Source: Candidatus Methylomirabilota bacterium (GTDB lineage Bacteria > Methylomirabilota > Methylomirabilia > Rokubacteriales > CSP1-6). Taken from it: a DNA stretch of 14,188 nt. Both the position numbers and the translations under genes were made by a program. Shown one piece after another: positions 1 through 14,188 of this stretch. The stretch is from NCBI GenBank assembly GCA_046726415.1, contig JBKPAK010000131.1, forward strand, positions 1 to 14,188, read 5' to 3'. Position 1 is the first letter of the stretch; the number at the start of each line of letters is the position of its first letter. Below the pieces are notes generated by a model. That model made no database searches. It saw only the letters and a program-made list of their open reading frames with translations, and was not told the DNA's origin.

Positions 1-116
1 AGGCGGCGCCCGTTCAGCTGCCCCTTGAGGACCCGGTTCTCCTCCACCAGGTATTCGATGACGCGGTTGATCCAACCCGCGAGGGTCACGAGTAGCACCT
101 GCAAGGGGGTAGACAT
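1..116 (-). mobile_element. 5' end of an rve/integrase-core-domain (DDE) transposase gene, running off the window
   Basis: ATG at 116 gives MSTPLQVLLVTLAGWINRVIEYLVEENRVLKGQLNGRR. This resembles the N-terminus (L.LAGWINR....VIEYL.EENRVL..QL.GRRL) of a widespread integrase-core transposase family. About 4 residues usually found between WINR and VIEYL appear to be missing. Confidence 0.75.
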
Positions 117-173
117 CGGTCGTCATGAGCCGATCGTACCGTGCCTCAATCCGGCCCGTGTACCGAGTGAGGC

Positions 174-196
174 CGGCTGAGTATTCGGACCATACG
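174..196 (-). mobile_element. Putative left terminus (IR) of the integrase-core element
   Basis: Minus strand reads CGTATGGTCCGAATACTCAGCCG, about 60-80 bp upstream of the transposase ATG. It abuts exactly the point (197) where an ADH fragment begins, and resembles recalled ends of this element family. Confidence 0.5.
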
Positions 197-293
197 GGCG
201 CCAAGGTCATCCTGGCTACGGCGACCAGCGGAGAGCGATGAGTGCCGTCCAGGGCGGCGTGGCCGTGAACGGGAAACCGCTTGGCCTTGTAGG
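197..293 (+). pseudogene. Internal fragment of a zinc-dependent (MDR) alcohol dehydrogenase
   Basis: GAKVILATATSGE, then a 1-nt frameshift, then (A)MSAVQGGVAVNGKPLGLVG. This matches the GAxVILATxxSGxAMSAVxGGLxVNG segment of MDR ADHs. No N- or C-terminus is present. Confidence 0.6.
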
Positions 294-352
294 CAGGGAA
301 TGCTCTGATCAGGTTCACGCTTCCAGACTCGCCCCCCTGAAAGGGTACGTAT

Positions 353-1249
353 ATGGCAACGGTGCTCATTACCGGTTCAAGCACGGGCCTTGGCCTCGCC
401 ACGGCCGTGGCGCTTGCCCGCGCCCGCCACGACGTCTACGCGACCATGCGCAATCCGGACCGCTCGCCCGAACTGCAGACCATCGCGCATCAGGAGTCGC
501 TGCCCATCACGATCCTGCGCCTCGATGTGGACAGCGATGACTCGGTCATGCAGGCCGTCCAGCAGGTGTTGGCAGTGGGCGGTGGCATTGATGTACTCGT
601 CAACAATGCCGGGATTCTCGCGTTCGGCGCGGTCGAGGACCTGCCACTCGACGTCTTTCGACGGACCATGGAGACAAACTACTTTGGCGCGCTCCGTTGC
701 ATTCAAGCGGTGCTGCCTTCGACGCGCGAGCGCAGGAGCGGGTGTATCGTCAATGTGACCTCGATCGGCGGCCGTATTACCATGGGCGCACACGGATGCT
801 ACACGGCCACGAAGTTCGCGCTCGAAGCGCTGAGCGAAGCGCTGGCGCAGGAGGTCAAGGCGTTCAATATCCGAGTGGCCATCGTCGAGCCCGGCATCAT
901 GCAGACAGCGATCTTCGCCAAGATGCCCGAAGATCCCCCTCCGTCGCATTATCCACACGAAGGACGCCTCCGGGCCCTCCATGCGGCCGGGCTCGTCAGT
1001 CCGATGTCGCCGTTCGTGGCGGGCGAGGCGATCCGCCAGATCGTCGAGAGCGACAGCGGGCAACTACGGTATCCGGTCGGCCCGGATGCCTTGCCGTTCC
1101 TGGAGAGGCGAGCCGCCATGACCGACGAGGCGTGGCTCAACTGGAACACCCCCCCGGACGACGACGAATGGTACGCGCAACTCGAGCGCGACTTCGGGCC
1201 GGACGCCCGGCCGTTTCGCGGGGTCCGATCCTTTGCGCGCGGCGTCTGA
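353..1249 (+). CDS. Short-chain dehydrogenase/reductase (classical SDR), 298 aa
   Basis: TGSSTGLG (TGxxxGxG), LDV, NNAG, catalytic S (VTS), YTATK (YxxxK) and VEPG motifs; intact ORF. Confidence 0.95.
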   Translation: MATVLITGSSTGLGLATAVALARARHDVYATMRNPDRSPELQTIAHQESLPITILRLDVDSDDSVMQAVQQVLAVGGGIDVLVNNAGILAFGAVEDLPLDVFRRTMETNYFGALRCIQAVLPSTRERRSGCIVNVTSIGGRITMGAHGCYTATKFALEALSEALAQEVKAFNIRVAIVEPGIMQTAIFAKMPEDPPPSHYPHEGRLRALHAAGLVSPMSPFVAGEAIRQIVESDSGQLRYPVGPDALPFLERRAAMTDEAWLNWNTPPDDDEWYAQLERDFGPDARPFRGVRSFARGV

Positions 1250-1384
1250 GCGGCGCGTGGGTGCAATAACGCCGATCACCGGTGCGGCGTCCGTCGCCGA
1301 ACCAGGGTTAGCGTCGCAGGAGCGGTTCGGTCGGCCGCTCCGCCGCATCGAAGCGGCGACCGGCGTGCGGGCTCGATCTTGACG

Positions 1385-1588
1385 CGCGGCGGTCTCCAGA
1401 ATCTTCACCAGCGTGGGAATCGCCGGCGGATCCTGGGTGGCGGCGATGACCCCCATGGCCTCGGTCCGGAACTGCAAGCTCAACCTCGCCACCTCGGCGG
1501 CGCTCGGCGCGAGGTCGAGCCGATCCGACGCACTGTCCATTGAGCCACCGACAAGACCCCGCACGGCCTCATCGCGCACTTCAGGATC
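1385..1588 (-). pseudogene. Possible HEAT-repeat protein fragment overlapping the 3' end of the cyclase gene
   Basis: Frame reads DPEVRDEAVRGL...FRTEAMGVIAATQDPPAIPTLVKILET, giving two HEAT/PBS-lyase-like units (DPxVRxxAxxxL; AxxxxxxxxDPxAIPxLxxxL). It then degenerates into low-complexity sequence. Confidence 0.4.
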
Positions 1589-4500
1589 CCTTGCTCGCCC
1601 CGAAAGCCATCAGGGCTTGCGCACTCTTGCGCTGCCAGAAGGAGATGCCCCAGGCGTCGAACTGGTCGCGCACGGCCGCGAGCAGGACTTGGGCGCGCGG
1701 GACCTCGCCTTTGGCGGCGAGCATCTGGGCCAGATAAAAGCGTGTCTGCGCGGCGAGCACCACGGCGCCCGTCGCCTCGTCGGCCTGCACGCTCTGGATC
1801 AGACAGGCTTCAGCCTGGACGAAATCAGGCAAGCGGCCCGCCGCCAGCAGGCGCCCCTGCAGGAGGGCGAACCTGGCCGTGCGCCGTTTCCCCTCTTGGT
1901 GGTAGCGTTCGGCGGCCGGCCGATCTCCCAGCTCGAGGCTGGCCCACGCCAGGTTGAAATAGACCTCCCCGAGCCCATCGTGGTGAGGGGTGCCGGCAAT
2001 CGCCTGCAGAGCCTGGGTACACGCCTCTCGGGCCGCGGCAAAGTGCCCCACGGCAATGAGGGCGGTACTGTGAGCCACGTGAGCAAAAAATCGCATGGAT
2101 GGCGAGTCGGTCTCGGCCGTGAGGGTGAGGAGCTGTTCGGCGCGGGCCAGGGCTCCGTGATCCTCCCCTAGCAGCACCGCCATCCGACTGTGCCACAGCA
2201 CGCAATAGATCTTGGTGAAGAGGTTGGAGAGGCGCTCCAGCGCGGGCGTGTAGCCCTTGAGCAGCGCGTCCTTGGCCTCGGCAACGCGGCCCTGCAGGGC
2301 CAAATTGTATCCCAGGGCCGTACACCCATAGGCGTAGGCCAGGAAGCCCACCCCCCAATCGATCTCCTTGGTCTGCGACTGCTCTTCCTCCTGCGCACGA
2401 ATGCTCTCGGCGAACAGGGGCGCGGCTTGTTGCCATTGGCCCTGGGCGTTGTAGGCCATGGCCAGGGCGTAGCGGGCGGTGGTCAGGGAGGCGTTCTCCG
2501 CGGTCCCGTTCAGGTACTCCAGGGCGCGCAGGAAATACGGTTCAGCGGTCTTGTACTCCCCTGTGAAGCCATAGCTGATGCCGTACCCCACGCACACTTT
2601 GCCCAGGCGCACCCGGTCCGACAGCGCGTGCGCCATGGTTTCAGCTTCCTGGCAGATGAACAGCATGCGCTCGAGTCGTCCTAGGAAGTGCAACGGCCAC
2701 AGGCTTTCCAGGTTCAGATCGATCAAGGCCTCCTGCTGGGCGCGCTCCTCCGGGAGTTGCAGCAACCAAGCCCGGGCCTGTTCGAAGAGGGTGACGGCGT
2801 CCTGGAATTGCCCGAGCCGGTGGGCCCGGGCAGCGGCGCGGCGGCCGTAGTGCACCGCCTTCGGCAAATCTCCCGCCGCGGTGTAGTGATGGGCCAGCAA
2901 TTCCGGCTGAGCCTCGGCCGTATTGGGGAACCGCGTGTCCAGCACCTCGGCAATGCGCTGATGGTATTGCTTCCGGGTGCTCCGGAGGAGCGACTGATAG
3001 GCCGCCTCTTGGAGGAGGGCGTGCTTGAAGTGATAGGTCGCCTCGGGTGGGACCCCTCGCTGGTAGAGCAGCTCTGCCGCGACGAGCTGCCGGAGGCCGT
3101 GCTGCAGCGTGGCCTCATCGAGGGGGGTCACCGCCTGGAGCAGGTCATACGCGAATGTGCGCCCCAGGGTGGCCCCCAGCTGGGCCACCGACTTGACCGT
3201 GTTCAGGCGATCCAGGCGCGCCATCAAGGCATCGTGGAGCGTGGTGGGAATGGCCAGGGTGGGCAAGGGACCCGTCAATTCATAGTGCTCTTCCGCCTCG
3301 TGGAGCACGCCGGACTCCACGATGGATTTGGTCAGCTCTTCGACGAACAGCGGCACGCCATCGGTGTTGGTCACCACGCGCTGGAGGACTTCCCTGGGCA
3401 GTGGTTTTCCCCCGGTCACCCGGGTGACCATCGCTTCGACGTGGGCTGCGGACAGGCGCTGGACGGACAGGGGCGTGAGGTCGGCCCCCAACTCCCAGGG
3501 AGCCTGGAAGTCAGATCGATAGGTCACGACGGTCAAGGTCGCTGCGGTGGGCCCCTGGGTGATCAGGAGCTGAAGGAATTCCACGGTCGAGGTATCGGCC
3601 CACTGGAGGTCTTCGAGGATCAACAGGACCGGGTGCCGTTCCGCCAGCTCCACGACGATGGCCAGGAGCGCTTCCAGCGTTTTCTGCTTCTGCTGCTCCG
3701 GGGTGATGGGCAGCGGCGCATACCGCGCCTCTGGAAGCGGCAGGGAGAGGACGGTGGCAAAGAGCGGGACCGCCTCCTCGAGAGGCAGACGGTACTGGGC
3801 GAGAGCGCGCTCAAGTTTCTCCAGCTTCGTGTCGGGGGCCTCATCCCGCTGGAAGTGCAGCACGCGTTCCATCATGTTGATGAGTGGGTACAGGGTCGTG
3901 TGCTGGTAATAGGGAGAGCATCGGCACTCCAACCGGGTATGCGGCTCGTCGGCGATGTGGTCCTTGAGCACCTGCACCAGGCGCGACTTGCCGATTCCGG
4001 CCTCCCCGCTCAGCGCGACGATGTGCCCCTGGCCGTCCTTGACCCCGGCCCAGCGGGCGAGCAGCAGGGCAACTTCCGCCTCCCGCCCGACCAAAGGCGT
4101 GAGTCCGCGCGCGGCGGCCACGTCGAGACGACCCTGCACCCCACTCTCACCGAGGACCTGATAGACGGGGATGGCCGTGGGCACACCGCGCAGGGCCTGG
4201 GGGCCAATGGCGTGGCAGGTGAAATGCCCCTGGACGAGACGCAGGGTGGCCTCACTGATGACCACCGTGTCAGGCCGCGCCAGACTCTGGATCCTCGCGG
4301 CGATGTTCGGCGCTTCCCCGAGCGCCAGCTGCTCCTGCCGGCCTCTTCCGCCCACGCTGCCCACGACGACCAGTCCCGTGTGGATGCCCACGCGGACCGC
4401 CAGTTGGATCGGTGGTTCCCGCTGCTGTAGCAGTTTGCGCGTCACGCCGAGGGCGTCGACGATCCCGAGCCCGGCCCGCACCGCCCGCTGAGCATCGTCC

Positions 4501-4967
4501 TCGTGCGCTTGGGGGTAGCCAAAGTAGACGAGCAGGCCATCGCCGAGATACTGGGCGATGTGGCCGTCAAACTGCTGGATCACCTCGGCGCAGGTCTGCT
4601 GATAGGCCTGGATCACCTCGCGCAGGTCTTCCGGGTCTCGCTCAGCCGCGAGCCCCGTCGAGTCCACCAGGTCGCAGAACATCACCGTGAGCTGGCGGCG
4701 TTCTGCCTCCTCGGTGAGAGGAGGGACGGGAAGCGGTGGAGCCTGGGGCGCCGGGGCGTGCGCCGGCGGCGCGCTGGTCGGCCTGCGCCACATTATGAGG
4801 CGGCCATCTACGTCAACCGCCACCCCCCGGGCGTCGATGAGCTCGGTCTTGAGGTCGTCGAGGCAGGGGTCATCGAGGTTGAAGCGGCGCTTCAGGGCCC
4901 CGTAGGACACGCGGCCCTCATGCTGAAGCAGCGCGAGAACCTCCACCAGTAGCTCATCAAACGTCAT
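1581..4967 (-). CDS. Class III adenylate/guanylate cyclase + AAA/STAND ATPase + TPR-like repeats, 1128 aa
   Basis: Cyclase motifs MFCDLVDST, YLGDGLLVYFG, VRVGIHTG and GEAPNIAARIQ. Walker A GEAGIGKS, Walker B LLILEDLQWAD, GVPLFVEE (GxP) and FKHALLQEAAY. Helical TPR-like C-terminus. N-terminal ~60-aa domain (GRVSYGALKRRFNLDD) followed by a Pro-rich linker. Confidence 0.93.
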   Translation of the reverse strand: MTFDELLVEVLALLQHEGRVSYGALKRRFNLDDPCLDDLKTELIDARGVAVDVDGRLIMWRRPTSAPPAHAPAPQAPPLPVPPLTEEAERRQLTVMFCDLVDSTGLAAERDPEDLREVIQAYQQTCAEVIQQFDGHIAQYLGDGLLVYFGYPQAHEDDAQRAVRAGLGIVDALGVTRKLLQQREPPIQLAVRVGIHTGLVVVGSVGGRGRQEQLALGEAPNIAARIQSLARPDTVVISEATLRLVQGHFTCHAIGPQALRGVPTAIPVYQVLGESGVQGRLDVAAARGLTPLVGREAEVALLLARWAGVKDGQGHIVALSGEAGIGKSRLVQVLKDHIADEPHTRLECRCSPYYQHTTLYPLINMMERVLHFQRDEAPDTKLEKLERALAQYRLPLEEAVPLFATVLSLPLPEARYAPLPITPEQQKQKTLEALLAIVVELAERHPVLLILEDLQWADTSTVEFLQLLITQGPTAATLTVVTYRSDFQAPWELGADLTPLSVQRLSAAHVEAMVTRVTGGKPLPREVLQRVVTNTDGVPLFVEELTKSIVESGVLHEAEEHYELTGPLPTLAIPTTLHDALMARLDRLNTVKSVAQLGATLGRTFAYDLLQAVTPLDEATLQHGLRQLVAAELLYQRGVPPEATYHFKHALLQEAAYQSLLRSTRKQYHQRIAEVLDTRFPNTAEAQPELLAHHYTAAGDLPKAVHYGRRAAARAHRLGQFQDAVTLFEQARAWLLQLPEERAQQEALIDLNLESLWPLHFLGRLERMLFICQEAETMAHALSDRVRLGKVCVGYGISYGFTGEYKTAEPYFLRALEYLNGTAENASLTTARYALAMAYNAQGQWQQAAPLFAESIRAQEEEQSQTKEIDWGVGFLAYAYGCTALGYNLALQGRVAEAKDALLKGYTPALERLSNLFTKIYCVLWHSRMAVLLGEDHGALARAEQLLTLTAETDSPSMRFFAHVAHSTALIAVGHFAAAREACTQALQAIAGTPHHDGLGEVYFNLAWASLELGDRPAAERYHQEGKRRTARFALLQGRLLAAGRLPDFVQAEACLIQSVQADEATGAVVLAAQTRFYLAQMLAAKGEVPRAQVLLAAVRDQFDAWGISFWQRKSAQALMAFGASKGS

Positions 4968-5190
4968 CTTCTCGCCCTTCCCGCGTGCGCGTCCGGCGGC
5001 CCGAAGCGGAGGATCTCCAGGGCCAGCGACTGGTCGAAGATGGGGGCGGCCTGGCGCAGCCAGTTATTCAGCGCGCGCCCGGCCTCGCAGCCGTCAACGA
5101 AATCGCAGGTGAGGGGGTCGTACTGGCCTTGACCATCCCGCACAGGGAGTGGCCAGATGATGGCGGCGTTGAGCACTTCTGACGGAAAGC
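4964..5190 (-). pseudogene. 3' remnant of an unknown gene translationally coupled to the cyclase gene
   Basis: Its TGA overlaps the cyclase ATG (ATGA at 4967-4964). The peptide is protein-like (SEVLNAAIIWPLPVRDGQGQYDPLTCDFVDGCEAGRALNNWLRQAAPIFDQSLALEILRFG). The 5' part runs into the IS91 remnant. Confidence 0.4.
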
Positions 5191-5209
5191 TCTGGTGGCC
5201 AGCTCCTGT

Positions 5210-5371
5210 ACGAGTTACCTCCCCGAGACGAACGGCTCCACGCACTTGTTACTCCATCCGCTAGAGCTGATCGAAAAGCTTTCGGTGCTAATTCCTTCGC
5301 CTCCGTTTCATGCGCTGCGCCTCTATGACTTGCTGGCCCCGCACGCCGCGTGGCGTTCGCAAATTATCCCC
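5210..5371 (+). mobile_element. Degenerate IS91/ISCR-family (HUH) transposase C-terminal fragment
   Basis: NGSTHLLLHPLELIEKLSVLIPSPPFHALRLYDLLAPHAAWRSQIIP matches the DGxTHLxxxPLELxExLxxLxPxPxxHxxRYHGxLAPxAxWRxxIxP motif. The conserved YHG is eroded. Confidence 0.8.
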
Positions 5372-5484
5372 CGGGCCTGGGGAAGATGTCGACCTGAAAC
5401 TCGGGGGGCACGGCGTCGTGTCCGGCGCGTCAGGGGGCTATCCGGCTGGCGAGCCCGCAAAGGGCAGGCGGGACCCACCCTGAC

Positions 5485-5517
5485 TGGCGGATCCCGTTGG
5501 GGAATCGAACCCGTATT
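5485..5517 (-). other. tRNA 3'-end-like remnant (possible att scar)
   Basis: Minus strand AATACGGGTTCGATTCCCCAACGGGATCCGCCA contains a T-arm GGG-TTCGATT-CCC and a terminal CCA. No D-arm or anticodon arm is recognisable. Confidence 0.5.
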
Positions 5518-5587
5518 CCGGGGAGCGCCGTGCGCGATCACCCGACTGGAGGTCGTATCCAGTAGGTGTCTGGTGTCGTGTAGTGTC

Positions 5588-5610
5588 TTCATATCCAGCC
5601 CCCTCGACCA
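5588..5610 (+). other. Second degenerate tRNA 3'-end-like remnant
   Basis: TTCATATCCAGCCCCCTCGACCA resembles a tRNA-Pro-type TTCAAATCC...CGACCA end and is followed 9 nt later by a strong hairpin. Confidence 0.35.
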
Positions 5611-5619
5611 GCAACGGCT

Positions 5620-5653
5620 AAGGGTTAGCGGACGTCGCAGCCGCTAATCCCTT
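5620..5653 (+). terminator. Stem-loop, terminator-like
   Basis: AAGGGTTAGCGG-9 nt-CCGCTAA(T)CCCTT is a 12-bp stem with one bulge, followed by TCGTTT. Confidence 0.55.
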
Positions 5654-5701
5654 TCGTTTACCCGGGATCACCGGGGAAGTCGCGTGGCTGCGGACCGGGC
5701 G

Positions 5702-6170
5702 TCAGATGCGGGGCAAGCCAAGCTCCTCGGCGCCGATCTCCTCGCGACCGCGGCGCATGACCGCGCGCTCGATCACGGCGGAGAGCTCGCGGACGTTGCC
5801 TGGCCAGCGGTAGCGTCTCAACTGCGCCTCGGCGTCAGTCGTCAGCCGCCGGGCCTCACCCTGACGCTGGGCCAGCCTCGCCGCGAAGTGTCGGGCGAGC
5901 GGCAGGATGTCGTCGGGACGCTCACGCAGGGGGAGTAGGGTGAGCGTGGATCGCGCAAACCGATCGAGCAGATCCGCGCGGAAGGTGCTGCGGGACCGCA
6001 TCGGCGAGATCGGCGTGCGTCGCAGCGATGACTCGAACGTCCAGCGACCTTGCCGCGACTCCGCCGAGGCGTTGTATCGATCTGTTCTCGATCACCGCCA
6101 GCAGCCTGCCCTGCAGATCGAGCGAGAGCGCATCGACGTCGTCCAGGAAACACCGTGCCGCCGTCGGCGG
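5702..6170 (-). pseudogene. Frameshifted sigma54-dependent activator (NtrC-like AAA+) fragment
   Basis: AADGGTVF, frameshift near 6147, then LDDVDALSLDLQGRLLAVIE...DVRVIAATHADL, frameshift near 5993, then FRADL...PLRERPDDILPLARHF...YRWPGNVREL. No clear Walker A, GAFTGA loop or Fis HTH. Confidence 0.85.
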
Positions 6171-6563
6171 CCCCTGCTGCAGCGCTTGGGGCTCGGCCAC
6201 CACTCCTCCCGTCCGCCCCCGAAGCCCTCCCGGTGACCGTGCCTTCCCGCTTCGCCGTCCCTCGCCTGGCCCGCGCCTCGCTGCTCGTCTGCCTCCCACC
6301 GCCGCTCGCCGCCCGGTCACCCTGATCGCACCGCGCTCGTCCGGGCACAGGGCCACGGTTCTCGCCCCTTCTCGCCTTCGCCCGCCCCGCTGACTGTCCC
6401 CCGCAGCCCTGGCCGGTTGCCGTCGCGGAGGGCGACCGGCTCGCGACCGCGGTGCAGAGGCAATGTTGTCCGGCGCGCCTCTTCGCGCAGGGCCTTTGAA
6501 CCGCCTATCCCCTTCGGAATCCTCAGAGCTTAGCGAGGTCGGACCAAGAGGATAGGCTCTTGC

Positions 6564-6635
6564 GCCTAACGCTGCCGCTGAGCGGCGGCGGCGAGCGAAT
6601 GCGAGCCAGCCGCCCGCTCAAGCGGGTTGTCAGGC
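6564..6635 (-). mobile_element. attC: Integron attC site 1 (72 bp)
   Basis: Minus strand: R'' GCCTGAC, 5 nt, L'' GCTTGAGC, central stem, L' GCTCAGC, 6 nt, R' GTTAGGC. Three unpaired bases all lie on the L'' arm. Begins 9 bp after the ankyrin stop codon. Confidence 0.88.
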
Positions 6636-6644
6636 AGCACTCGG

Positions 6645-7364
6645 CTAACTCCTGCCGCGTCGCGTCGATAGTCCGTTGGCCATGGCCTTGAAGTCTGGAT
6701 CTCGCTTTCTCGACATGATCTCGGCGGCCGTATCGCCGTTCTCGTTTTTAAGGTCGCCTCGGGCGCCGTATCGAAGCAGCGTGCGGAAATGACGCTTGTC
6801 GCTGTCCTTCTTCAGCATGTAGTGAAGCCCAGTCATCCCGTGGCTGTCTTGAAAGTTCACGTTTGCGCCCCTCTCAAGTAACGCTTCCGCCGCACGAAAA
6901 TGACTGCCCTTCACCGCGCTAAGGAAGGGGGTCTCGTCTTCGGCAACCGGATCTATATCGGCACCATGCTCAAGAAGCAACTTGATGGTTGCGATGTCGT
7001 CCTTGTGTGCGGCTGCCCACAGGCAATGATTCGCGTCGCAGCCGCGTTGCAATAGATGTGTGGCGAGCTGCAGATTCTGACCTCGGGAGACCGCGTACCA
7101 CAGTGGTGTCGCCTTCCAGCTATGCTCGCTGAACGCCTCTTGATTGATATCGATTCCGGCGCTCAGGAGCGCGTCGGCGGTGCGAACGCTGTCGACCGGC
7201 GACAGCTTCTTCGACCTCACGTTTACCCCGCAGCAGATGTGAAGGAAGTTCCGTCCTCTGTCGTCTCGATATGCAATCAGCTTCGGCTCGGCTGCTAGAC
7301 TCGCTTGCACGTCACGCCAACGTAGGCTCTTTACCGACTCCAGCACTTGCGTTCGCGATACCAC
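6645..7364 (-). CDS. Ankyrin-repeat protein (integron cassette gene), 239 aa
   Basis: Repeats GRNFLHICC, ATPLWYAVSRG, ETPFLSAVKG...LLERGANVN, GMTGLHY and GDTAAEI. GGGAGG RBS upstream of the GTG start. Visibly more A/T-ending codons than the flanking genes. Confidence 0.92.
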   Translation of the reverse strand: MVSRTQVLESVKSLRWRDVQASLAAEPKLIAYRDDRGRNFLHICCGVNVRSKKLSPVDSVRTADALLSAGIDINQEAFSEHSWKATPLWYAVSRGQNLQLATHLLQRGCDANHCLWAAAHKDDIATIKLLLEHGADIDPVAEDETPFLSAVKGSHFRAAEALLERGANVNFQDSHGMTGLHYMLKKDSDKRHFRTLLRYGARGDLKNENGDTAAEIMSRKRDPDFKAMANGLSTRRGRS

Positions 7365-7408
7365 CCATCCCTCCCTGATGTTCGCTTGTCCCGTGCGTCA
7401 CGGCGGCT

Positions 7409-7503
7409 GCCTAACGACCAGCTCAGCAGCACCGGCCGCCGAGGGGGCTACACGTCGGGGAAAGCGACATGCGGCCGGTGTCTGCTGCAGCGCCTGGTTC
7501 GGC
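7409..7503 (-). mobile_element. attC: Integron attC site 2 (95 bp)
   Basis: Minus strand: R'' GCCGAAC, 5 nt, L'' GCTGCAGC, 10-bp stem CACCGGCCGC/GCGGCCGGTG, L' GCTGAGC, 5 nt, R' GTTAGGC. Two extrahelical bases (C and T on the bottom strand) lie on the L'' arm. Confidence 0.9.
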
Positions 7504-7534
7504 GTGCCTTTACTCCGCGGCCGCCACACGCTAA

Positions 7535-7657
7535 TTAGGTCGCGTCCGGCTTCCGTTCGGTGGCGGGCGTGCCGCTGAAGACCTCGATGATCACGCCAAG
7601 ATCGCGGTCGGTCGGGAGGTATGCGACCTTGGCGCCGCTGAACGTGCCGCTGAGCAA
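7535..7657 (-). pseudogene. 3' remnant of a VOC/glyoxalase-like (methylmalonyl-CoA epimerase-like) gene, probable former cassette
   Basis: Not in the ORF track. Reads [40 protein letters not shown], a VOC-like terminal strand pattern (VAYL-x-T-xx-LGVIIE). The stop lies 31 bp upstream of attC2. Confidence 0.6.
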
Positions 7658-7835
7658 TCAGCACGGCCGTGGCCGCGCGGCCGATGCCGGGCATGTTGTG
7701 GTGCTCGGCCAGCCAGAACCGCGTGTAGCCCCGCCGCTCCGCGTGCTGCGCCAGCTCCAGCGTGTGGCGGAAGGCCAGGGCCGGCGTGCCGCCTTGGACG
7801 ATAGGAGAGAGATCCAGGGCCGAGAGCGGAATCAT
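7653..7835 (-). pseudogene. 5' fragment of an LLM-class (luciferase-like) flavin monooxygenase
   Basis: [61 protein letters not shown] is a typical LLM N-terminus ([11 protein letters not shown]). Similarity ends after about 61 aa. Confidence 0.88.
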
Positions 7836-8209
7836 CCCCTGCAGGATACACGCTCGAGTGAGCGGTTGGCGGGCGGGGCAACCTTACCTCTACCCCCACA
7901 CTTCTCGTTCCGAATTGAATTCGAATCCCGCCTCTGCCAGGCTCTGTGTCGTCCATCAACTGTGGCAAGTTCCTCTGCGCGCGGTAAGGTGGGCCGGATA
8001 GTCTTGCCAAAATTCCGTTTACGAGGGCGGCCCGGGCGGATGACCTCCGGCGGCGGCGGGCGACTGAAAGGCGCTCATACTCTGAGGCCCGTAGGTACAG
8101 CCCCGATCGTGCCCCCGCGGTGGGTACGGCCGTTTGACTTGGGTTGCGCCGAAGCATACGCTTTTGCGCAGCATCGAGGGTCTCACGACGGCCTTCCGGG
8201 AGGAACCAG

Positions 8210-9679
8210 ATGAGCGCGCACCACCATACGCCCGAAGACATCCGCAAGAATCTCGACCACCCCGTCATCGACGGCGACGGGCATTGGGTCGAGTACACCC
8301 CGGTCTTTGCCGAAAAAATCCGCAAGGTAACGGGCGACCTCGGCGCCAACGGGTTCTTGCAGTCGCAGCGCCGCATACCCGATGCGCTCAGCCTGACCCT
8401 CGCGCAGCGCGCCGAACGTGGCGTCGCGATGGAGGGGTTTTGGGGCCGGCAATCGACCAACACGCGCGACCGCGCGACGGCGATGATGCCCAAGATGCTA
8501 TACGACCGGCTCGACGAGCTCGGCATCGATTTCGGCATCGTCTACCCGACCGCCGGGCTCGGCATCCCGCGCATCGCCGACGACGCGACCCGGCGCGCGG
8601 TGATCCGCGGCTTCAACATCGTCACCCATGACTATTTCAAGGACCTCACCGACAAGCTGACCCCGGCCGCGGTGATCCCGGTGCACACGCCGGATGAAGC
8701 GATCGAGGAATTGGAGTTCGTCACCAATCAGCTGGGCTCAAAGGTCTGCATGTTCGGCAGCGGCGTGCGCCGGCCGATCCCGCACGCCAAGGGGGTCCCC
8801 GCCGACCTCGCCCGCTATGCCCAGAGCTTCGATCAACTCGGCCTCGACAGCGATTACGATTACGATCCGCTGTGGGAGAAATGCCGCGAGCTCGGCATTG
8901 CGCCGACCTTCCATACCGGCGGCCGCTCCTATGGCGAGCGCAACAGCCCGTCTAACTTCACCTTCAACCATATCGGTCATTTCGCCGCGGCCGGCCATAA
9001 CGTCGCCAAGGCTTTGTTCCTTGGCGGTGTGACCCGGCGCTTCCCCGATCTGCGTTTCGCGTTCCTCGAAGGCGGCGTCGGCTGGGGCTGCCAGCTGTTC
9101 TGTGATCTGATCGAGCATTGGGAGCGGCGCGGTGCCAAGGGTCTGCAGAACATGGACCCGATCAAGCTCAACCGTCCGCTGCTGCGCGAGCTGGTTGACA
9201 AATACGGCTACGCCGAGATCGCCGCCGAGCTCGACAAGCGTGAGGGCTGGCCGCTCGAAGAGGATTTTCTCACCGGTGGTATGCCACCCGACGACTACAT
9301 CCACTGCAACATCACCCAGAAGCAGGATTGGATCGACCTCTACGCTACGCCGTACTATTTCGGCTGCGAAGCCGACGACCGGATGAACTCGGTGGCGTTC
9401 GGCAAGGCGATGCCGCTGGGGGCGCGGATCAACGCGATCTACAGCTCCGATATCGGACATTTCGACGTCGTCGACATGCGCGATCCGCTGCCCGAAGCCT
9501 TCGAGCTGGTCGAGGCCGGCCACATCACCGAAGACGATTTCCGCGACTTCGTCTTCGCCAATGCGGTGCGGCTGTGGGGCACGCAGAACCCGCGCTTCTT
9601 TGAGGGCACGGCGGTGGCCAGGGAAGCCGCGGCGTCGTTGAAGAGCGGCGCCCCGACCTTGCGCGACCCGGCGAAATAA
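8210..9679 (+). CDS. Amidohydrolase family protein (Amidohydro_2-like metal-dependent TIM barrel), 489 aa
   Basis: VIDGDGH metal motif, PTFH, FLEGG and YSSDIGHFD. ATG 8210 preceded by GGGAGG is preferred over the track start at 8144. Confidence 0.9.
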   Translation: MSAHHHTPEDIRKNLDHPVIDGDGHWVEYTPVFAEKIRKVTGDLGANGFLQSQRRIPDALSLTLAQRAERGVAMEGFWGRQSTNTRDRATAMMPKMLYDRLDELGIDFGIVYPTAGLGIPRIADDATRRAVIRGFNIVTHDYFKDLTDKLTPAAVIPVHTPDEAIEELEFVTNQLGSKVCMFGSGVRRPIPHAKGVPADLARYAQSFDQLGLDSDYDYDPLWEKCRELGIAPTFHTGGRSYGERNSPSNFTFNHIGHFAAAGHNVAKALFLGGVTRRFPDLRFAFLEGGVGWGCQLFCDLIEHWERRGAKGLQNMDPIKLNRPLLRELVDKYGYAEIAAELDKREGWPLEEDFLTGGMPPDDYIHCNITQKQDWIDLYATPYYFGCEADDRMNSVAFGKAMPLGARINAIYSSDIGHFDVVDMRDPLPEAFELVEAGHITEDDFRDFVFANAVRLWGTQNPRFFEGTAVAREAAASLKSGAPTLRDPAK

Positions 9680-9713
9680 CCGGAGCGCGGGCGTCTCGCG
9701 CGCCCTTCTACGC

Positions 9714-9747
9714 TCATGGCCGGGTCACGCCCGGCCATGACGCTTTT
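9714..9747 (+). terminator. Perfect 11-bp palindrome, terminator or REP-like
   Basis: TCATGGCCGGG-TCACG-CCCGGCCATGA followed by CGCTTTT, located between convergent genes. Confidence 0.6.
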
Positions 9748-9749
9748 GG

Positions 9750-10306
9750 GGACTGCGACCAGGAAGACGCCGGCGCCACCGCCGACGTGGAGCAACGGCG
9801 CGGCGAGCAGCGGCCCCAGCAGCCGTGCGCCGTTCTGGTTGGCCTGGAGGGGGGAGACGGCGTTGAGCAGATCGCGTGCAGGGACTAGGTTCCCCAGCAT
9901 CGCCTGCTCGATCGGCGTGCTGGACGAGCGAGACGCGCCTAGGATGAAGGAGACGAGGACGAGCGGCCAGGCGTTCTGGCCTCCCCTCCCATGCGAACCA
10001 GGCGAGCCCGAGAGCCGCGAGCAGACCGACCGCGTTCATGGCCAGCAACATCGTCCGCCGATCGTAGCGGTCGGCGAACACACCGGCGAAGGGGGTGATG
10101 ATGATCGATGCCAGGAAGGCAGCGAACACGACGCCGACGGTCGAGTGGTGGTGCAGCTCGAACGCCACCCAGCCGCACGCCGTGAGCGCGGTTATGTAGG
10201 CGACGCCCGACAGGATCGACGCCGTCCACAGCGGCCGAAAGCGCTTGTACCGAACGGCTGAGAAAATGCCCGCCCGATCTCCGCCCTCAAAGATGTTGGT
10301 CGGCAT
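9750..10306 (-). pseudogene. Truncated, frameshifted MFS transporter (N-terminal ~6 TMs only)
   Basis: FRPLWTASILS and motif A (FAGVFADRYDRR). After a frameshift near 9980 it continues AWPLVLVSFILGASR...MLGNLVPARDLLNAVS...ARLLGPLLAAPLL...GVFLVAV, then stops resembling MFS. Confidence 0.85.
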
Positions 10307-10360
10307 CCGCTCAAGGCTGCGCCCGCTTGCCCCAGGGCGTCAAGGTGGGCATCCGGTCGG

Positions 10361-10412
10361 ATCGCGTAGGAGTCGGCTCGATCTCATAGGAGTGGGCTCG
10401 ATCTCATAGGAG
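10361..10412. repeat. 20-bp tandem repeat, ~2.6 copies
   Basis: ATCGCGTAGGAGTCGGCTCG / ATCTCATAGGAGTGGGCTCG / ATCTCATAGGAG, with no spacers. Confidence 0.85.
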
Positions 10413-10590
10413 CGATGCCGGGCTGCCGGCACACGCGTCAACGTCCAGATGAGCTCCAGCCGCAGGGTGTTGTCGATTGAAGCGGCCGGCTAGCCATCGT
10501 ATACGACGGGCATGCCCGACGGAGATACCGGGACCGTGTGTAGCCCCCAACACCATCCGCGCACCGATCGAGGTGCCCGAGGAGACTCCC

Positions 10591-11337
10591 GTGCCATTCT
10601 ATGAAAAAGGCAACGTCCGCATCCGCTACGAGGAGGCTGGCTCCGGCTTTCCACTGCTTGTCACCCCCGGCGGCGGCTTGAACTCCCGCGTGAGCAATTG
10701 GCCGACCGCGGTGTTCAACGCCATGGAGGCCTTCAAGAACGACTTCCGCTGCATCACGATGGATCAGCGCAACGCGAATGGCGGCGAGTCGACGGGGCCC
10801 ATTCCGGCCAGCGATCCGTGGGGCGCCTTCGCCGACGACCAGCTGGGGCTGATGGACCACCTCAGCATCCAGAAGTTCTTCTACATGGGCTACTGCATCG
10901 GTGGGCCGTTTGGCCTCAAGCTCATCGAGCGGGCTCCCGATCGCGTCGTTGCCGCGGTGCTGTGCCAGCCGGTCGGGCACCGTCCGGAGAATCCCGACGT
11001 CATGTACAACTCCGGCCGCGACGGCTGGGCCCCCGAGCTGCGCGGGCGGCGTCCTGAGATCACCATGGAGAGCATCGAGGCCTACCTGCACAACCTCTAC
11101 CGGGCTCGGCCCGACTTCGTGTACAGCGTTTCGCGCGACTTCGTGCGCTCCTGCCAGACGCCGGTGCTCGTGATGCCGGACGACACGCCGGCGCATCCGT
11201 ATCAGACGTCCGTGGACATCGCCGAGCTCGCGCCGAAGGCCCAGTCGACGGTGTTTCCCTGGAGAGAGCCGAAGGATCTGCTCGAGAAGACGATCGACCA
11301 GGTGCGCGGCTTCCTTCGATCGCATCAGCCAAGATGA
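10591..11337 (+). CDS. Alpha/beta-fold hydrolase with Cys nucleophile elbow, 248 aa
   Basis: GTG start after GAGGAG. Motifs IRYEEAGSGFPLLVTPGG, ITMDQRNANGGES, MGYCIGG (GxCxG) and TPVLVMPDD. Confidence 0.88.
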   Translation: MPFYEKGNVRIRYEEAGSGFPLLVTPGGGLNSRVSNWPTAVFNAMEAFKNDFRCITMDQRNANGGESTGPIPASDPWGAFADDQLGLMDHLSIQKFFYMGYCIGGPFGLKLIERAPDRVVAAVLCQPVGHRPENPDVMYNSGRDGWAPELRGRRPEITMESIEAYLHNLYRARPDFVYSVSRDFVRSCQTPVLVMPDDTPAHPYQTSVDIAELAPKAQSTVFPWREPKDLLEKTIDQVRGFLRSHQPR

Positions 11338-11705
11338 TGGCCGGCCGCTGAGACGCCGCGCGCTTTTGCCCCCCGCGCGACCTCAATCGAGGGGCCTCGC
11401 TGGCGCGGTGCCCTCACGCCCGCCAGCCGGGGCGCCTTCGGCCCTAATGGGTACGGCGCCTCGCGGCCATCGGGACGTGGCCGCCGCCTGATCCGCTACG
11501 TGCCCGTGCGACAGCGGGTCTCGACGGCGTGTACAGGTGGCGCTCGCCCGACGCGGCGCCCGTGTTTCATCCCCTACCTCCACCCCACTGATGACGAGAT
11601 CGCCGCCATGGTCTCGGCCCTGTTGAGCCCGCTGGTCAGCGCTTGATGGATCGCCGGGGGCCCACCCGCACCTCGGCCGCCGACGGCGCGGGGTTGGCCG
11701 GGGCA

Positions 11706-12866
11706 TCATCCGCGACCGCGGGGCCCGGCGTGCGTGGCGAGGAATGCCCGATCGCGGACGAACCGCCCGGGCGCGAAGGCCTCGAGTGACCCGCGTGTCA
11801 CGACCGAGGATGAGATCGGCGATCGAGCGTCCCATGGCGGGACCGTAGAGGATGCCCTTGCGGGCGCCGCCGGTCGCCATGTAGACGTGCTCGAGCCCGG
11901 GCACCCGGCCGAGCACGAGCAGTCCGTCCGATGCCACGGGCCGCAAGCAGGCGGTCTGGTGCGCGATCTGGGCGTCGGCCATCGCGGGCAGCATCTTCAC
12001 AAGCGCGGCCCCGATCTCGTCGCGGGCCGCGGCCGTCGAGTCCTCGTCGAAGCCCGCCTCCTCTTCGGTCGTCCCCGCCCAGAGGAGGCCGTCGGTCTTG
12101 GTCGTGGCGTAGTTATGCCCCCAGCCGACCGAGCAGTCGACCGGCGGCCCGGGAGCCTGCAGGCGGAGGATCTGGCCCTTGAGAGGACGGACGTCGATGG
12201 GCACGCCGATCCCGTCCGACACCTCGGCGCTCCACGGGCCAAGCGCGAGCACCACCGTGGAGCAGGCGACCACGTCCCGCTCGAGAACCACGCCGGTGAC
12301 GCGCCCGCCGTCGCGCAGCAAGCTGATCGCTCGCCCGTGCCGGACCCTCACTCCCAGGCCTTCGGCGGCCCGGGTCAGGGCCAGCACCAGACGATAGGGC
12401 TCGACGCCGGCGGTGTCCTCGATCAGCGTCGCTCCCAGCGTCTCGTCCGAGACACGCGGCTCCACGCGGCGAGCCTCCGAAGCGTCCAGCCAGCGCGCCC
12501 CGTAGCCCGGCTGCCGCTGCTGCCAGGGCAGCGCGGCCTGGAGTGGCTGGACGTCCGCCTCGCTGAAGGCCAGCGCGAGCGAGCAGCGGACGCGGAAGTC
12601 GACGTCAATCCCGGTCTCCTCGACGAGGCTCTCGCGCAGTTCGCGATGCAACCGCATCCCGTCCTGGGCGATCTCGGCCAGGGCCCTGGGATGCCGAAAC
12701 CACTCAGCGGGCTGAGCCCCCCGTACGCGAAGCCGGAGGCGTGGCTGCCGATCGCGTCGCGCTCGACGACAACGCTCGGTACGCGAGCCTTCGCCCGGTA
12801 GTAGGCGGTGGTCAGGCCAGCGATGCCGCCGCCCACGATCACGACGTCGGATGAATTCTCGGTCAT
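11706..12866 (-). pseudogene. FAD-dependent oxidoreductase (DAO / glycine oxidase ThiO-like) with two frameshifts
   Basis: DVVIVGGGIAG...VVVER...HASGFAYG, then a frameshift near 12682 into ...PLKGQIL...ACLRP...ATGGARKGILYGP. A second frameshift near 11787 leads into the canonical terminal LEAFAPGRF, with the stop at 11706. Confidence 0.85.
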
Positions 12867-12957
12867 CGTCCGCCGATCCTGTCAAAGAACGCGAGAACGG
12901 TCAAACCGCCCGGAGCAGCGCGATATTCGCGACGCACACGAGCGCCCAGCGAGGGCA

Positions 12958-13770
12958 TCAGTCGCGGGAACGGCGCCCCGTGAAGCACGGCGCCCGCTTC
13001 TCGCGGAAGGCGGCGACACCTTCCGCACGGTCCGGCGTGCGGCCGGCGATCGCCTGGTTTCGCGCCTCCATGTTCAGGACGTCCTCGAGCGACATGCCCA
13101 GTCCTTGGTAGAGTCCCGTCTTGGCCAGCCCGTACGCCAAGGTCGGCCCTTGGGCCAGCCGCTCGGCGAGCTTCAGCGTCTCGTTCTCGAGCTGCTCCGC
13201 GGGGACCACGCTGTTCACGAGACCGATTCGCAACGCCTCGTGGGCGTCGATGATGTCGGCGAGCAGGATCATCTCCATGGCCTTGGCCGTGCCGATGAGG
13301 CGTGGGAGGAAATACGTTCCCCCGCCGTCGGGCACGAGACCCACGCGCGCGAAGACCTCACCGAAACGGGCCGTGTCGGCTGCGATGCGCAGGTCGGTGG
13401 CCAGCGCGATGTTCAACCCGGCTCCCGCGGCCACACCATTGATGCTGCCGACGATAGGTTTCTCGAGCCGCTGCATGCGGAGGATACAGCGGTTCAAGCG
13501 CTCGACGAGAGCGCCCCCGAGGTCGCCGTCGAAGAACGACTGCTGGCCCTCGCCGGCGCGATCGCGCTTCTGATCACCGCCCGACGAGAACGCGCGCCCG
13601 GCGCCCGTCAGGATCACCGCTCGTACCGTGGCGTCGGCCTCGAGCTCGATGAGGATGCGCTCGAGCTCGCCCATCATGGGCTCGTTCATGGCGTTGAGCG
13701 TCTCGGGCCGGTTCAGGGTCAGGGTCACGATGCTGTCGTGACGGTCATACAGAACGGATCCGTTCGTCAT
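12958..13770 (-). CDS. Enoyl-CoA hydratase/isomerase (crotonase) family, PaaG-like, 270 aa
   Basis: LTLNRPETLNA, AFSSGGD, GVAAGAG, FARVGLVPDGGG and EGVAAFREKR; AAGGAG RBS. Confidence 0.93.
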   Translation of the reverse strand: MTNGSVLYDRHDSIVTLTLNRPETLNAMNEPMMGELERILIELEADATVRAVILTGAGRAFSSGGDQKRDRAGEGQQSFFDGDLGGALVERLNRCILRMQRLEKPIVGSINGVAAGAGLNIALATDLRIAADTARFGEVFARVGLVPDGGGTYFLPRLIGTAKAMEMILLADIIDAHEALRIGLVNSVVPAEQLENETLKLAERLAQGPTLAYGLAKTGLYQGLGMSLEDVLNMEARNQAIAGRTPDRAEGVAAFREKRAPCFTGRRSRD

Positions 13771-13909
13771 TCGTGCGCTCCTTGCCCGGTAGAGAACGTC
13801 GTGGTCAACGCGTTGGCCGCGCCTTCCCGGATCACCATCCTACCTCCACCTGACCCTTGACGACCTCGCCGCGCCCGCTGATCAGATCGAGCTGGGCGAT
13901 GCTCGGTCC

Positions 13910-13934
13910 TGTCCCTCGCCGAAACTCCGTTCGG
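13910..13934 (+). mobile_element. Putative right terminus (5'-TGT) of the integrase-core element at the right window edge
   Basis: TGTCCCTCGCCGAAACTCCGTTCGG (minus strand ...GGAGTTTCGGCGAGGGACA), about 200 bp downstream of the transposase stop. TGT/ACA ends are typical of IS481-like DDE elements. Confidence 0.5.
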
Positions 13935-14134
13935 CTGACATCGCGACTTAGCCGGATGCTGAACGGGCGACACGCCGCTGAACGAAGCTGGGCTTCACGA
14001 CACGCTACGGGACACGGCGCGCCGTGTCTCGAAACGCGGCGTGGCTGCGCCAATGGCGGGCAGATCACGAGGAGCAAGCATAACGTGGTAATGGCAGAGG
14101 CGATGGTGCGCTTGGACGGCCGGGCGAAACGCAG

Positions 14135-14188
14135 CTATGCCGCTCGCCGGATGTATCGATGATGCAGGCCACCGACTTCGCGGATGGG
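14135..14188 (-). mobile_element. 3' end of an rve/integrase-core-domain transposase gene entering from outside the window
   Basis: Reads PIREVGGLHHRYIRRAA*, matching the characteristic GGLHHRYxRxAA C-terminus of this family. Confidence 0.8.

Follow-up and report, generated by a model that had tools for sequence, protein, structure and literature searches.

A 14,188-nt stretch of genomic DNA from a Candidatus Methylomirabilota bacterium (GenBank assembly GCA_046726415.1, contig JBKPAK010000131.1, positions 1 to 14,188; hereafter the window) very probably carries an attC-site cluster without an integron integrase (CALIN), i.e., a fragment of an integron cassette array that is parted from any integrase (IntI). 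Read along the minus strand, the region consists of the first 59 codons of a luciferase-like monooxygenase (LLM) gene, the last 40 codons of a vicinal oxygen chelate (VOC) family gene, the site attC2, a complete ankyrin-repeat cassette, the site attC1, 391 bp of orphan DNA and the remnant of a sigma-54-dependent activator gene (Table 1). We show here that the cassettes have the canonical layout and that, at its 5' edge, the array is bounded by a junction falling within two coding sequences. Most likely, the fragment was cut off by illegitimate recombination in a region rich in gene fragments.

Table 1 Features of the cassette array and its edges within the window.
Feature	Positions	Length	Strand	Description
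LLM-class (MsnO8-type) flavin-dependent oxidoreductase gene start	7658-7835	first 59 codons	minus	TIGR03558, Bac_luciferase
VOC/glyoxalase-family (PF13669) gene, 3' remnant	7535-7657	40 codons + stop	minus	named from C-terminal similarity
attC2	7409-7503	95 bp	minus	3' end of the truncated upstream cassette; model R2 and strict rule scan
Complete ankyrin cassette	6570-7414	845 bp	minus	from TT of the attC2 R' box (G/TTAGGC) to G of the attC1 R' box
Ankyrin-repeat protein gene	6645-7364	239 aa	minus	Pfam Ank_2, Ank, Ank_4, E 1e-15 to 1e-18
attC1	6564-6635	72 bp	minus	3' end of the ankyrin cassette; covariance models R1/R2 and rule-based scan
Orphan sequence 3' of attC1	6173-6563	391 bp		minus strand G-rich; no convincing open reading frame
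Sigma-54-dependent activator remnant	5702-6172		minus	N-terminally truncated, frameshifted

Recombination sites of integron cassettes follow the consensus R''(RYYYAAC)-L''...L'-R'(GTTRRRY), in which the boxes are complementary, the spacers stay unpaired and the folded site has its extrahelical bases on a single arm. According to the covariance-model alignment described below, attC1 is composed of R'' GCCTGAC, a 5-nt spacer and the 8-nt L'' GCTTGAGC in one half and of the 7-nt L' GCTCAGC, a 6-nt spacer and R' GTTAGGC in the other; the corresponding elements of attC2 are R'' GCCGAAC, a 5-nt spacer and the 8-nt L'' GCTGCAGC, followed by the 7-nt L' GCTGAGC, a 5-nt spacer and R' GTTAGGC. Of the two, attC2 is a full match to the consensus, and attC1 is a match except for its R'' box, which has GAC where the consensus has AAC. 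In this one point the preliminary description of the stretch, which had credited both sites with full attC architecture, has to be corrected, whereas its coordinates, strand, lengths, boxes, spacers and one-arm bulges stand. The two sites share a strand, are separated by 773 bp (6635 to 7409) and are unlike in length and centre. Each lies just 3' of a stop codon, as had been noted before, with 9 nt between the ankyrin stop codon (6645-6647) and attC1 and 31 nt between the stop codon of the truncated reading frame (7535-7537) and attC2. Moreover, the heptamer GCCTAAC, the bottom-strand form of R' GTTAGGC, occurs twice in the window, at attC1 and attC2 only. Folded as DNA, the plus (bottom) strands of both sites form long hairpins with paired ends and an internal unpaired spacer, in which the bulged bases are confined to the 3' arm (attC1, -24.7 kcal/mol, z -2.6; attC2, -27.8 kcal/mol, z -2.7; dinucleotide shuffles). 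The folding check proposed earlier gave these hairpins, with z-scores that, taken by themselves, are modest. A gapless inverted-repeat finder passed over both because of the bulges.

Chance occurrence of such sites was assessed with a rule-based scan demanding an exact R' GTTRRRY, a complementary R'' with at most one mismatch, spacers of 3-6 nt and an 8-nt L'' perfectly paired to a 7-nt L' around one bulge. Under this rule, which had been loosened after attC1 had been seen, the window contains exactly two sites, attC1 and attC2, compared with a mean of 0.013 sites per shuffle over 300 dinucleotide shuffles (0/300 with two or more) and a single site across 50 other genomic loci, which amount to 873,224 bp of natural DNA. 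A stricter version requiring AAC in R'' is still passed by attC2. The scan is strict: of the attC sites in the class 1 positive controls, it recovered that of aadA1 (twice) and that of cmlA5 and missed the others.

Since Rfam holds no matching family (none at the gathering score across the whole window, none at E<=1 in 4900-8200), we built covariance models from true attC sites. IntI1 of plasmid R100 served to locate class 1 integrons on plasmids, and the attC sites of the nine plasmid loci including R100 were delineated 3' of annotated cassette genes. Because MAFFT alignments of attC sites of unequal length (10 and 6 sequences) were wrong in the L boxes and hence not used, the first model (R1) started from four sites, 58-60 bp long, for which the structure was written by hand. 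On held-out plasmid sites R1 yielded 48.5 bits for cmlA5, 38.3 for aac(6')-Ib4, 24.7 for dfrA27, 24.6 for VIM-4 and 14.5-17.6 for arr-3, and in the window 38.1 bits for attC1 and 15.9 bits for the L''-L' core of attC2. For the second model (R2), the eight plasmid matches that scored best were aligned with Infernal; every one of them stems from a class 1 array, and none from the window. With filters off, R2 covered both sites over model positions 1-60 of 60, giving 38.4 bits (E 2.6e-9) for attC1 and 36.8 bits (E 7.9e-9) for attC2. On its reverse strand attC1 scored 16.0 bits, and no further attC was found on either strand of the rest of the window (maximum 10.5 bits, E >=0.6). The background was low, with a best score of 15.4 bits (E 1.2) in the 50 genomic loci (873 kb, default filters) and of 14.0 bits in five of these searched with filters off (93,481 bp). 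The scores of attC1 and attC2 exceed those of three held-out true attC sites, namely VIM-4 (31.0 bits), dfrA27 (23.3 bits) and arr-3 (21.9/19.1/18.4 bits). Both attC sites are real, and the covariance-model test that the preliminary description had called for is thus passed at full length by each of them, here with our own model R2.

Integron crossover takes place between the G and the TT of R'. Applied to the R' boxes located here, this point would set the excision boundaries of the ankyrin cassette given in Table 1, leaving a 5' leader of 50 nt before the gene, which starts with GTG and is preceded by a GGGAGGG motif. The encoded protein has 752 homologues of about 235 aa, the nearest 91% identical, and the family alignment begins at residue 1, so that the open reading frame (ORF) is full length relative to its family. 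An ORF followed after 9 nt by a co-oriented attC1 and lacking a sigma-70-like promoter is the arrangement of an integron gene cassette. The ankyrin ORF has a foreign composition: its GC content is 0.579 and its third-position GC content (GC3) 0.679, as against a GC3 of 0.80-0.87 for intact genes on its flanks. Its protein gave generic repeat matches alone in NCBIfam and PADLOC, far under the family cut-offs, which suggests nothing more specific for the cargo than a role in protein-protein interaction. Judged by titles and abstracts, none of the papers listed by a literature search dealt with an ankyrin gene cassette with an attC site.

The cassette upstream of attC2 is truncated. Its 40 remaining residues are 98% identical over their whole length to the C-terminus of a 171-aa protein (P0123), and PF13669 is present in 29 of the 36 proteins matched at E<=10; the fragment alone has no Pfam match. 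Homologues of the ankyrin and VOC proteins with 84-98% identity are encoded on short metagenome contigs. Given an original length of about 160-171 codons, about 120 codons are gone. A full-length relative scored 41.9 bits against the methylmalonyl-CoA epimerase cut-off of 114.95, and a generic VOC protein is therefore the best name. Directly adjoining is the LLM remnant, which matches positions 1-56 of 325 of NCBIfam TIGR03558 (E 2.6e-22) as well as Pfam Bac_luciferase. Its homology to three plasmid LLM genes, as obtained by megablast, ends exactly at 7657, and, when aligned with an intact LLM gene, the sequence departs from it after GTGCTGAT(T/C)G. The two remnants are fused in different frames at about 7656/7657. 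Since this junction lies inside both coding sequences, lacks a GTT and shares at most 2-3 bases between the partners, it was not made by an integrase and points to illegitimate recombination as the origin of the upstream edge of the array. The end at 7657 that had been assigned to the truncated cassette is accordingly a real breakpoint, recognizable both from the stop of LLM homology and from the divergence of the alignment, and the earlier count of one complete and one truncated cassette is borne out by the full-length ankyrin ORF and the last 40 codons of the VOC gene. We also considered a third attC remnant at the junction, where GCTCAGCGGCA recurs from attC1; this candidate was rejected, as the stretch is VOC coding sequence and 98% identical to full-length homologues.

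Searches for an integrase, reaching about 6.5 kb to either side of the array, were negative. None of the 23 window ORFs matches the tyrosine recombinase family Phage_integrase (PF00589), and a lenient tblastn search with IntI1 through all six frames of the 14-kb window gave a best E of 0.047 at 21% identity, inside an amidohydrolase ORF (8144-9679), and revealed no intI pseudogene in the window either. This is in line with the preliminary description, which had seen no intI in the 14 kb. To our knowledge, attI sites have no general consensus sequence. In a complete integron, intI is found next to attI and Pc at the 5' end of the array; with that end being a breakpoint fused to an LLM fragment here and no IntI in the window, the element does not have the composition of a complete integron. 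Cury et al. 2016 (PMC4889954) define a CALIN by two or more attC sites that have no intI close by; here, two attC sites (model R2) on one strand, 773 bp apart and thus within 4 kb, are found with no IntI in the window, and the earlier designation of the arrangement as a CALIN agrees with the published definition in every testable respect.

We propose that the array derives from a longer array or an integron, and that illegitimate recombination, i.e., a deletion or rearrangement with no more than 2-3 nt shared, would have taken away its 5' part along with any attI and intI, so that the two cassettes stayed behind among decaying genes. A breakpoint inside an ORF favours such an origin by rearrangement or deletion over direct insertion. 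If IntI were supplied in trans, the bottom (plus) strands of attC2 and attC1 could, by analogy with integron biology, fold and recombine, whereupon the ankyrin cassette would be set free as a circle of 845 bp able to re-insert at an attI. Without IntI the array would be inert, and transcription of the ankyrin gene would have to start either at its own promoter or at that of the co-directed LLM gene and read through. More weakly, the unlike attC lengths and the composition of the two cassettes (GC3 0.68 for the ankyrin ORF versus 0.88 for the 41 codons of the VOC fragment) hint at different donor pools.

Several points weigh against this reading. No sigma-70-type promoter for the ankyrin gene was found in 6200-8300. 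The GAC in place of AAC in the R'' box of attC1 produces an A.C mismatch on its bottom strand beside the AAC cleavage triplet, so that attC1 may recombine poorly. Fold energies, taken alone, are modestly unusual (z -2.6 to -3.2). As to the models, both were self-built from small sets (4 sequences for R1 and 8 for R2, each of them from a class 1 array) and are not those of IntegronFinder; their E-values are rough owing to a short calibration, but the gap in bit scores is large. Furthermore, a held-out dfrA1 site, which had been delineated by eye, was not reported by R2 at E<=1, and the sensitivity of the model is therefore incomplete.

It is quite possible, if short of probable, that the array is functionally part of a complete integron, from whose integrase, located outside the 14-kb window on the chromosome or a different replicon, a rearrangement separated it. 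Such a rearrangement would agree with the breakpoints that flank the array on either side, and for about half of the CALINs considered by Cury et al. 2016 (PMC4889954) the replicon or genome also encodes IntI, rearrangements being able to split integrons. On the other hand, there is neither an IntI-like sequence within 6.5 kb on either side nor a further attC on either strand.

Unlikely, in our view, is a direct insertion of the cassettes, by an IntI acting in trans, at a secondary (attG) site inside the LLM gene, in which case no longer array would have preceded the present one. According to Loot et al. (bioRxiv 10.1101/2022.09.11.507474), IntI inserts cassettes at many non-att genomic attG sites, which was proposed as an origin of small CALINs, and 1362 of 2961 CALINs in 21,105 genomes carry two cassettes; a resident LLM gene interrupted by the array and a window free of intI pseudogenes would suit this scenario. 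IntI, however, would join host DNA to a cassette boundary, at the TT of an R' box, whereas the host gene here meets the middle of a cassette ORF from which about 120 codons are gone, and instead of the rest of the LLM gene a sigma-54 activator fragment is found across the array. With the LLM gene joined in mid-ORF and its remainder not beyond the array, at least one further non-specific rearrangement would be needed anyway.

That both elements are ordinary intergenic palindromes resembling attC sites, such as repetitive extragenic palindromic (REP) repeats or terminator hairpins, is most improbable: they do come after stop codons, in GC-rich DNA of the kind that often forms hairpins, and their fold z-scores are modest, but a model made from true attC sites only matches them at full length with about 37-38 bits, as against at most 15.4 bits in 873 kb of background, both have R boxes, unpaired spacers, an 8- versus 7-nt L box and one-sided bulges, GCCTAAC is limited to them within the window, no T-run follows and no terminator-like site was called at either, and blastn of each site against 72,556 plasmid records gave nothing better than E 0.09. 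REP families and bacterial interspersed mosaic elements (BIMEs) have many near-identical copies dispersed between genes; in the window there are these two sites only, unlike in length and centre, and the plasmid collection gave no significant match.

Returning to the CALIN and its ankyrin cargo, we scanned genomes for homologues of the ankyrin gene and obtained 50 loci with 29-86% identity from metagenome-assembled genomes (MAGs) and isolates of many phyla. None of the 50 shares flanking genes with the window, and none has a hit of model R2 beside the homologue, the latter being suggestive only because of the incomplete sensitivity of R2. Taken together, this argues that the gene stands here in a different, mobile-type context. 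At the nearest locus, in a Methylomirabilota MAG (86% identity), a convergent gene directly follows the ankyrin gene, and in related MAG loci the ankyrin gene lies among genes for aldo/keto reductase, nucleotidyltransferase, AHSA1-like and ArsR-type proteins. The family thus usually appears as an ordinary chromosomal gene and here as a cassette, which is compatible with recruitment without proving it. That the cassette is young and was recruited from this widespread chromosomal family, with the 86% MAG copy and 49 further homologues devoid of attC hits, strikes us as very unlikely; if true, a comparison of copies inside and outside cassettes could reveal the way in which an attC is joined on immediately behind a stop codon.

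Some observations concern these loci themselves. Six of them, all from 'delta proteobacterium' MAGs (L010, L012, L016, L017, L020 and L037, about 7800-11800), seem to have a common layout around the ankyrin homologue by ORF sizes (6/6). Pfam assigns some ORFs of L017, L010, L012 and L016 to aldo/keto reductase, AadB-like nucleotidyltransferase, in part glyoxalase, AHSA1/SRPBCC and ArsR-type regulator families, and an H+-pyrophosphatase gene adjoins the layout. A glyoxalase gene just upstream of the ankyrin homologue in one MAG was considered as a sign of a conserved VOC-ankyrin pair and rejected, as it is unrelated to the VOC type of the window (best tblastn E 0.11) and its position is taken to be a coincidence. 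In a locus of a Caulobacterales MAG (L026, 119-298), a stretch of 60 residues is 52% identical to the C-terminal catalytic region of IntI1; it lies about 9.7 kb from the ankyrin homologue, and the locus has no attC hit.

At the downstream edge, the orphan DNA that follows attC1 has a GC content of 0.725 (computed over 6190-6563), compared with 0.666 for the window overall, and yielded no convincing ORF, no plasmid homology and no Rfam match. This DNA may represent the beginning of a third cassette, since truncated, or may be non-coding. The interval 6001-6600, spanning the orphan DNA as well as the first part of the sigma-54 remnant, has a strong negative GC/AT skew (GC skew about -0.2) and a GC content of 0.72, both unlike the remaining window. 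A 55-nt hairpin at 6503-6557, 6 nt past attC1, has ends (GCCTATC...GATAGGC) that mimic R boxes, with the AAC/GTT triplet altered in a compensated manner. Its candidacy as a degenerate attC is unsupported, with 8.8 bits in the attC model and a fold z of -1.7. Homology to sigma-54 regulator genes begins at about 6172 by blastn, and beyond this point the domains Sigma54_activat (profile positions 97-151 of 168) and AAA_lid_14 are found in two different frames, so the remnant is a pseudogene. It marks the far limit of the rearranged stretch. Across the array, a 193-aa ORF at 9725-10306 (minus strand) matches only the N-terminal part of a major facilitator superfamily (MFS) transporter (MFS_3 positions 3-95 of 524) and is probably another truncated gene. 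Judged by the sigma-54 fragments in two frames and the probably truncated MFS gene, the array is surrounded by genes in decay, with intact genes farther out.

One of the intact genes (1581-4967, minus strand) encodes a protein of 1128 aa with adenylate/guanylate cyclase, AAA_16 and TPR domains, which resembles the TOMM kinase/cyclase fusion family below its cut-off (514 versus 706 bits) and whose cyclase domain matches Pycsar PycC models in PADLOC. The flanking genes also include one for an enoyl-CoA hydratase. At 5228-5340 (plus strand), there is a weak likeness to the C-terminus of an IS91-family transposase (Y2_Tnp, Pfam E 0.034). An IS91/ISCR-type element beside the array was considered on this match and rejected, a tblastn search against plasmids being empty. 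The motif GGGTTCGATTCCCC at about 5499-5512 (minus strand) is like a tRNA T-loop and has a CCA close by; neither ARAGORN nor Rfam called a tRNA or tmRNA.

The array adds one more catalogued case of cassettes stranded outside integrons, here in an uncultured high-GC environmental bacterium, and it is a clear case of a CALIN whose edge is demonstrably a non-specific breakpoint and not an integrase product. The understanding of integrons is unchanged by it; two-site CALINs number more than 1000 in complete genomes and are a common, well-described kind. Its practical value is a correct annotation of the ankyrin cassette, the VOC pseudogene, the LLM pseudogene and the two attC sites, together with a small lead on cassette origin.

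The cmlA5 attC (70 bp, class 1 integron, plasmid locus L056) has the L'' GCTGCAGC, L' GCTGAGC and R' GTTAGGC identical to those of attC2 and an R-box mismatch at the equivalent position. On the very unlikely reading of a young, recruited ankyrin cassette, the identity of these core boxes would further hint that lineages like this Methylomirabilota one feed cassettes into mobile integrons. Like class 1 attC sites in general, the two sites have the R''-L''...L'-R' architecture and scores within the range of true sites. Unlike them, their centres are unrelated and longer, the cargo is of a non-resistance type and the host DNA has about 67% GC; and unlike class 1 integrons, the array has neither IntI1 nor attI1 nor the 5' and 3' conserved segments. 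On the plasmid pGZAF1_VIM (locus L054, 1159-2322), an IS110-family element adjoins an intact attC between the smr cassette and qacEdelta1; targeting of attC sites is known for this group of the IS110 family, and the placement fits.

Sedentary chromosomal integron arrays likewise carry small accessory genes, without a known role, of environmental bacteria, including VOC/glyoxalase-type genes and genes for repeat proteins, yet the present array has no integrase and consists of two sites of unlike lengths (72 and 95 bp) with unrelated centres, whereas large sedentary arrays have homogeneous attC sites according to Cury et al. 2016 (PMC4889954). Integrase-less cassettes within chromosomal genes also characterize single attC sites lacking an integron integrase (SALINs) and attG insertions, as described by Loot et al. 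(bioRxiv 10.1101/2022.09.11.507474); in contrast to these, the array has two attC sites, not one, and its upstream junction falls in a cassette ORF, not at a cassette boundary. Closest are the published CALINs, of which 279, most of them small and most lacking an intI pseudogene, were counted in 2484 genomes, with integrase loss, rearrangement, secondary-site insertion and an as yet unknown cassette genesis given as four possible origins (Cury et al. 2016, PMC4889954). The array differs from these in that its sites were called by a self-built covariance model instead of IntegronFinder and in that its 5' edge is a non-specific breakpoint in a cassette ORF, fused to a truncated resident gene, and it resembles them in its two co-oriented attC sites less than 4 kb apart, in having no intI nearby, in its non-resistance cargo and in its small size, small arrays being the commonest class of CALINs.

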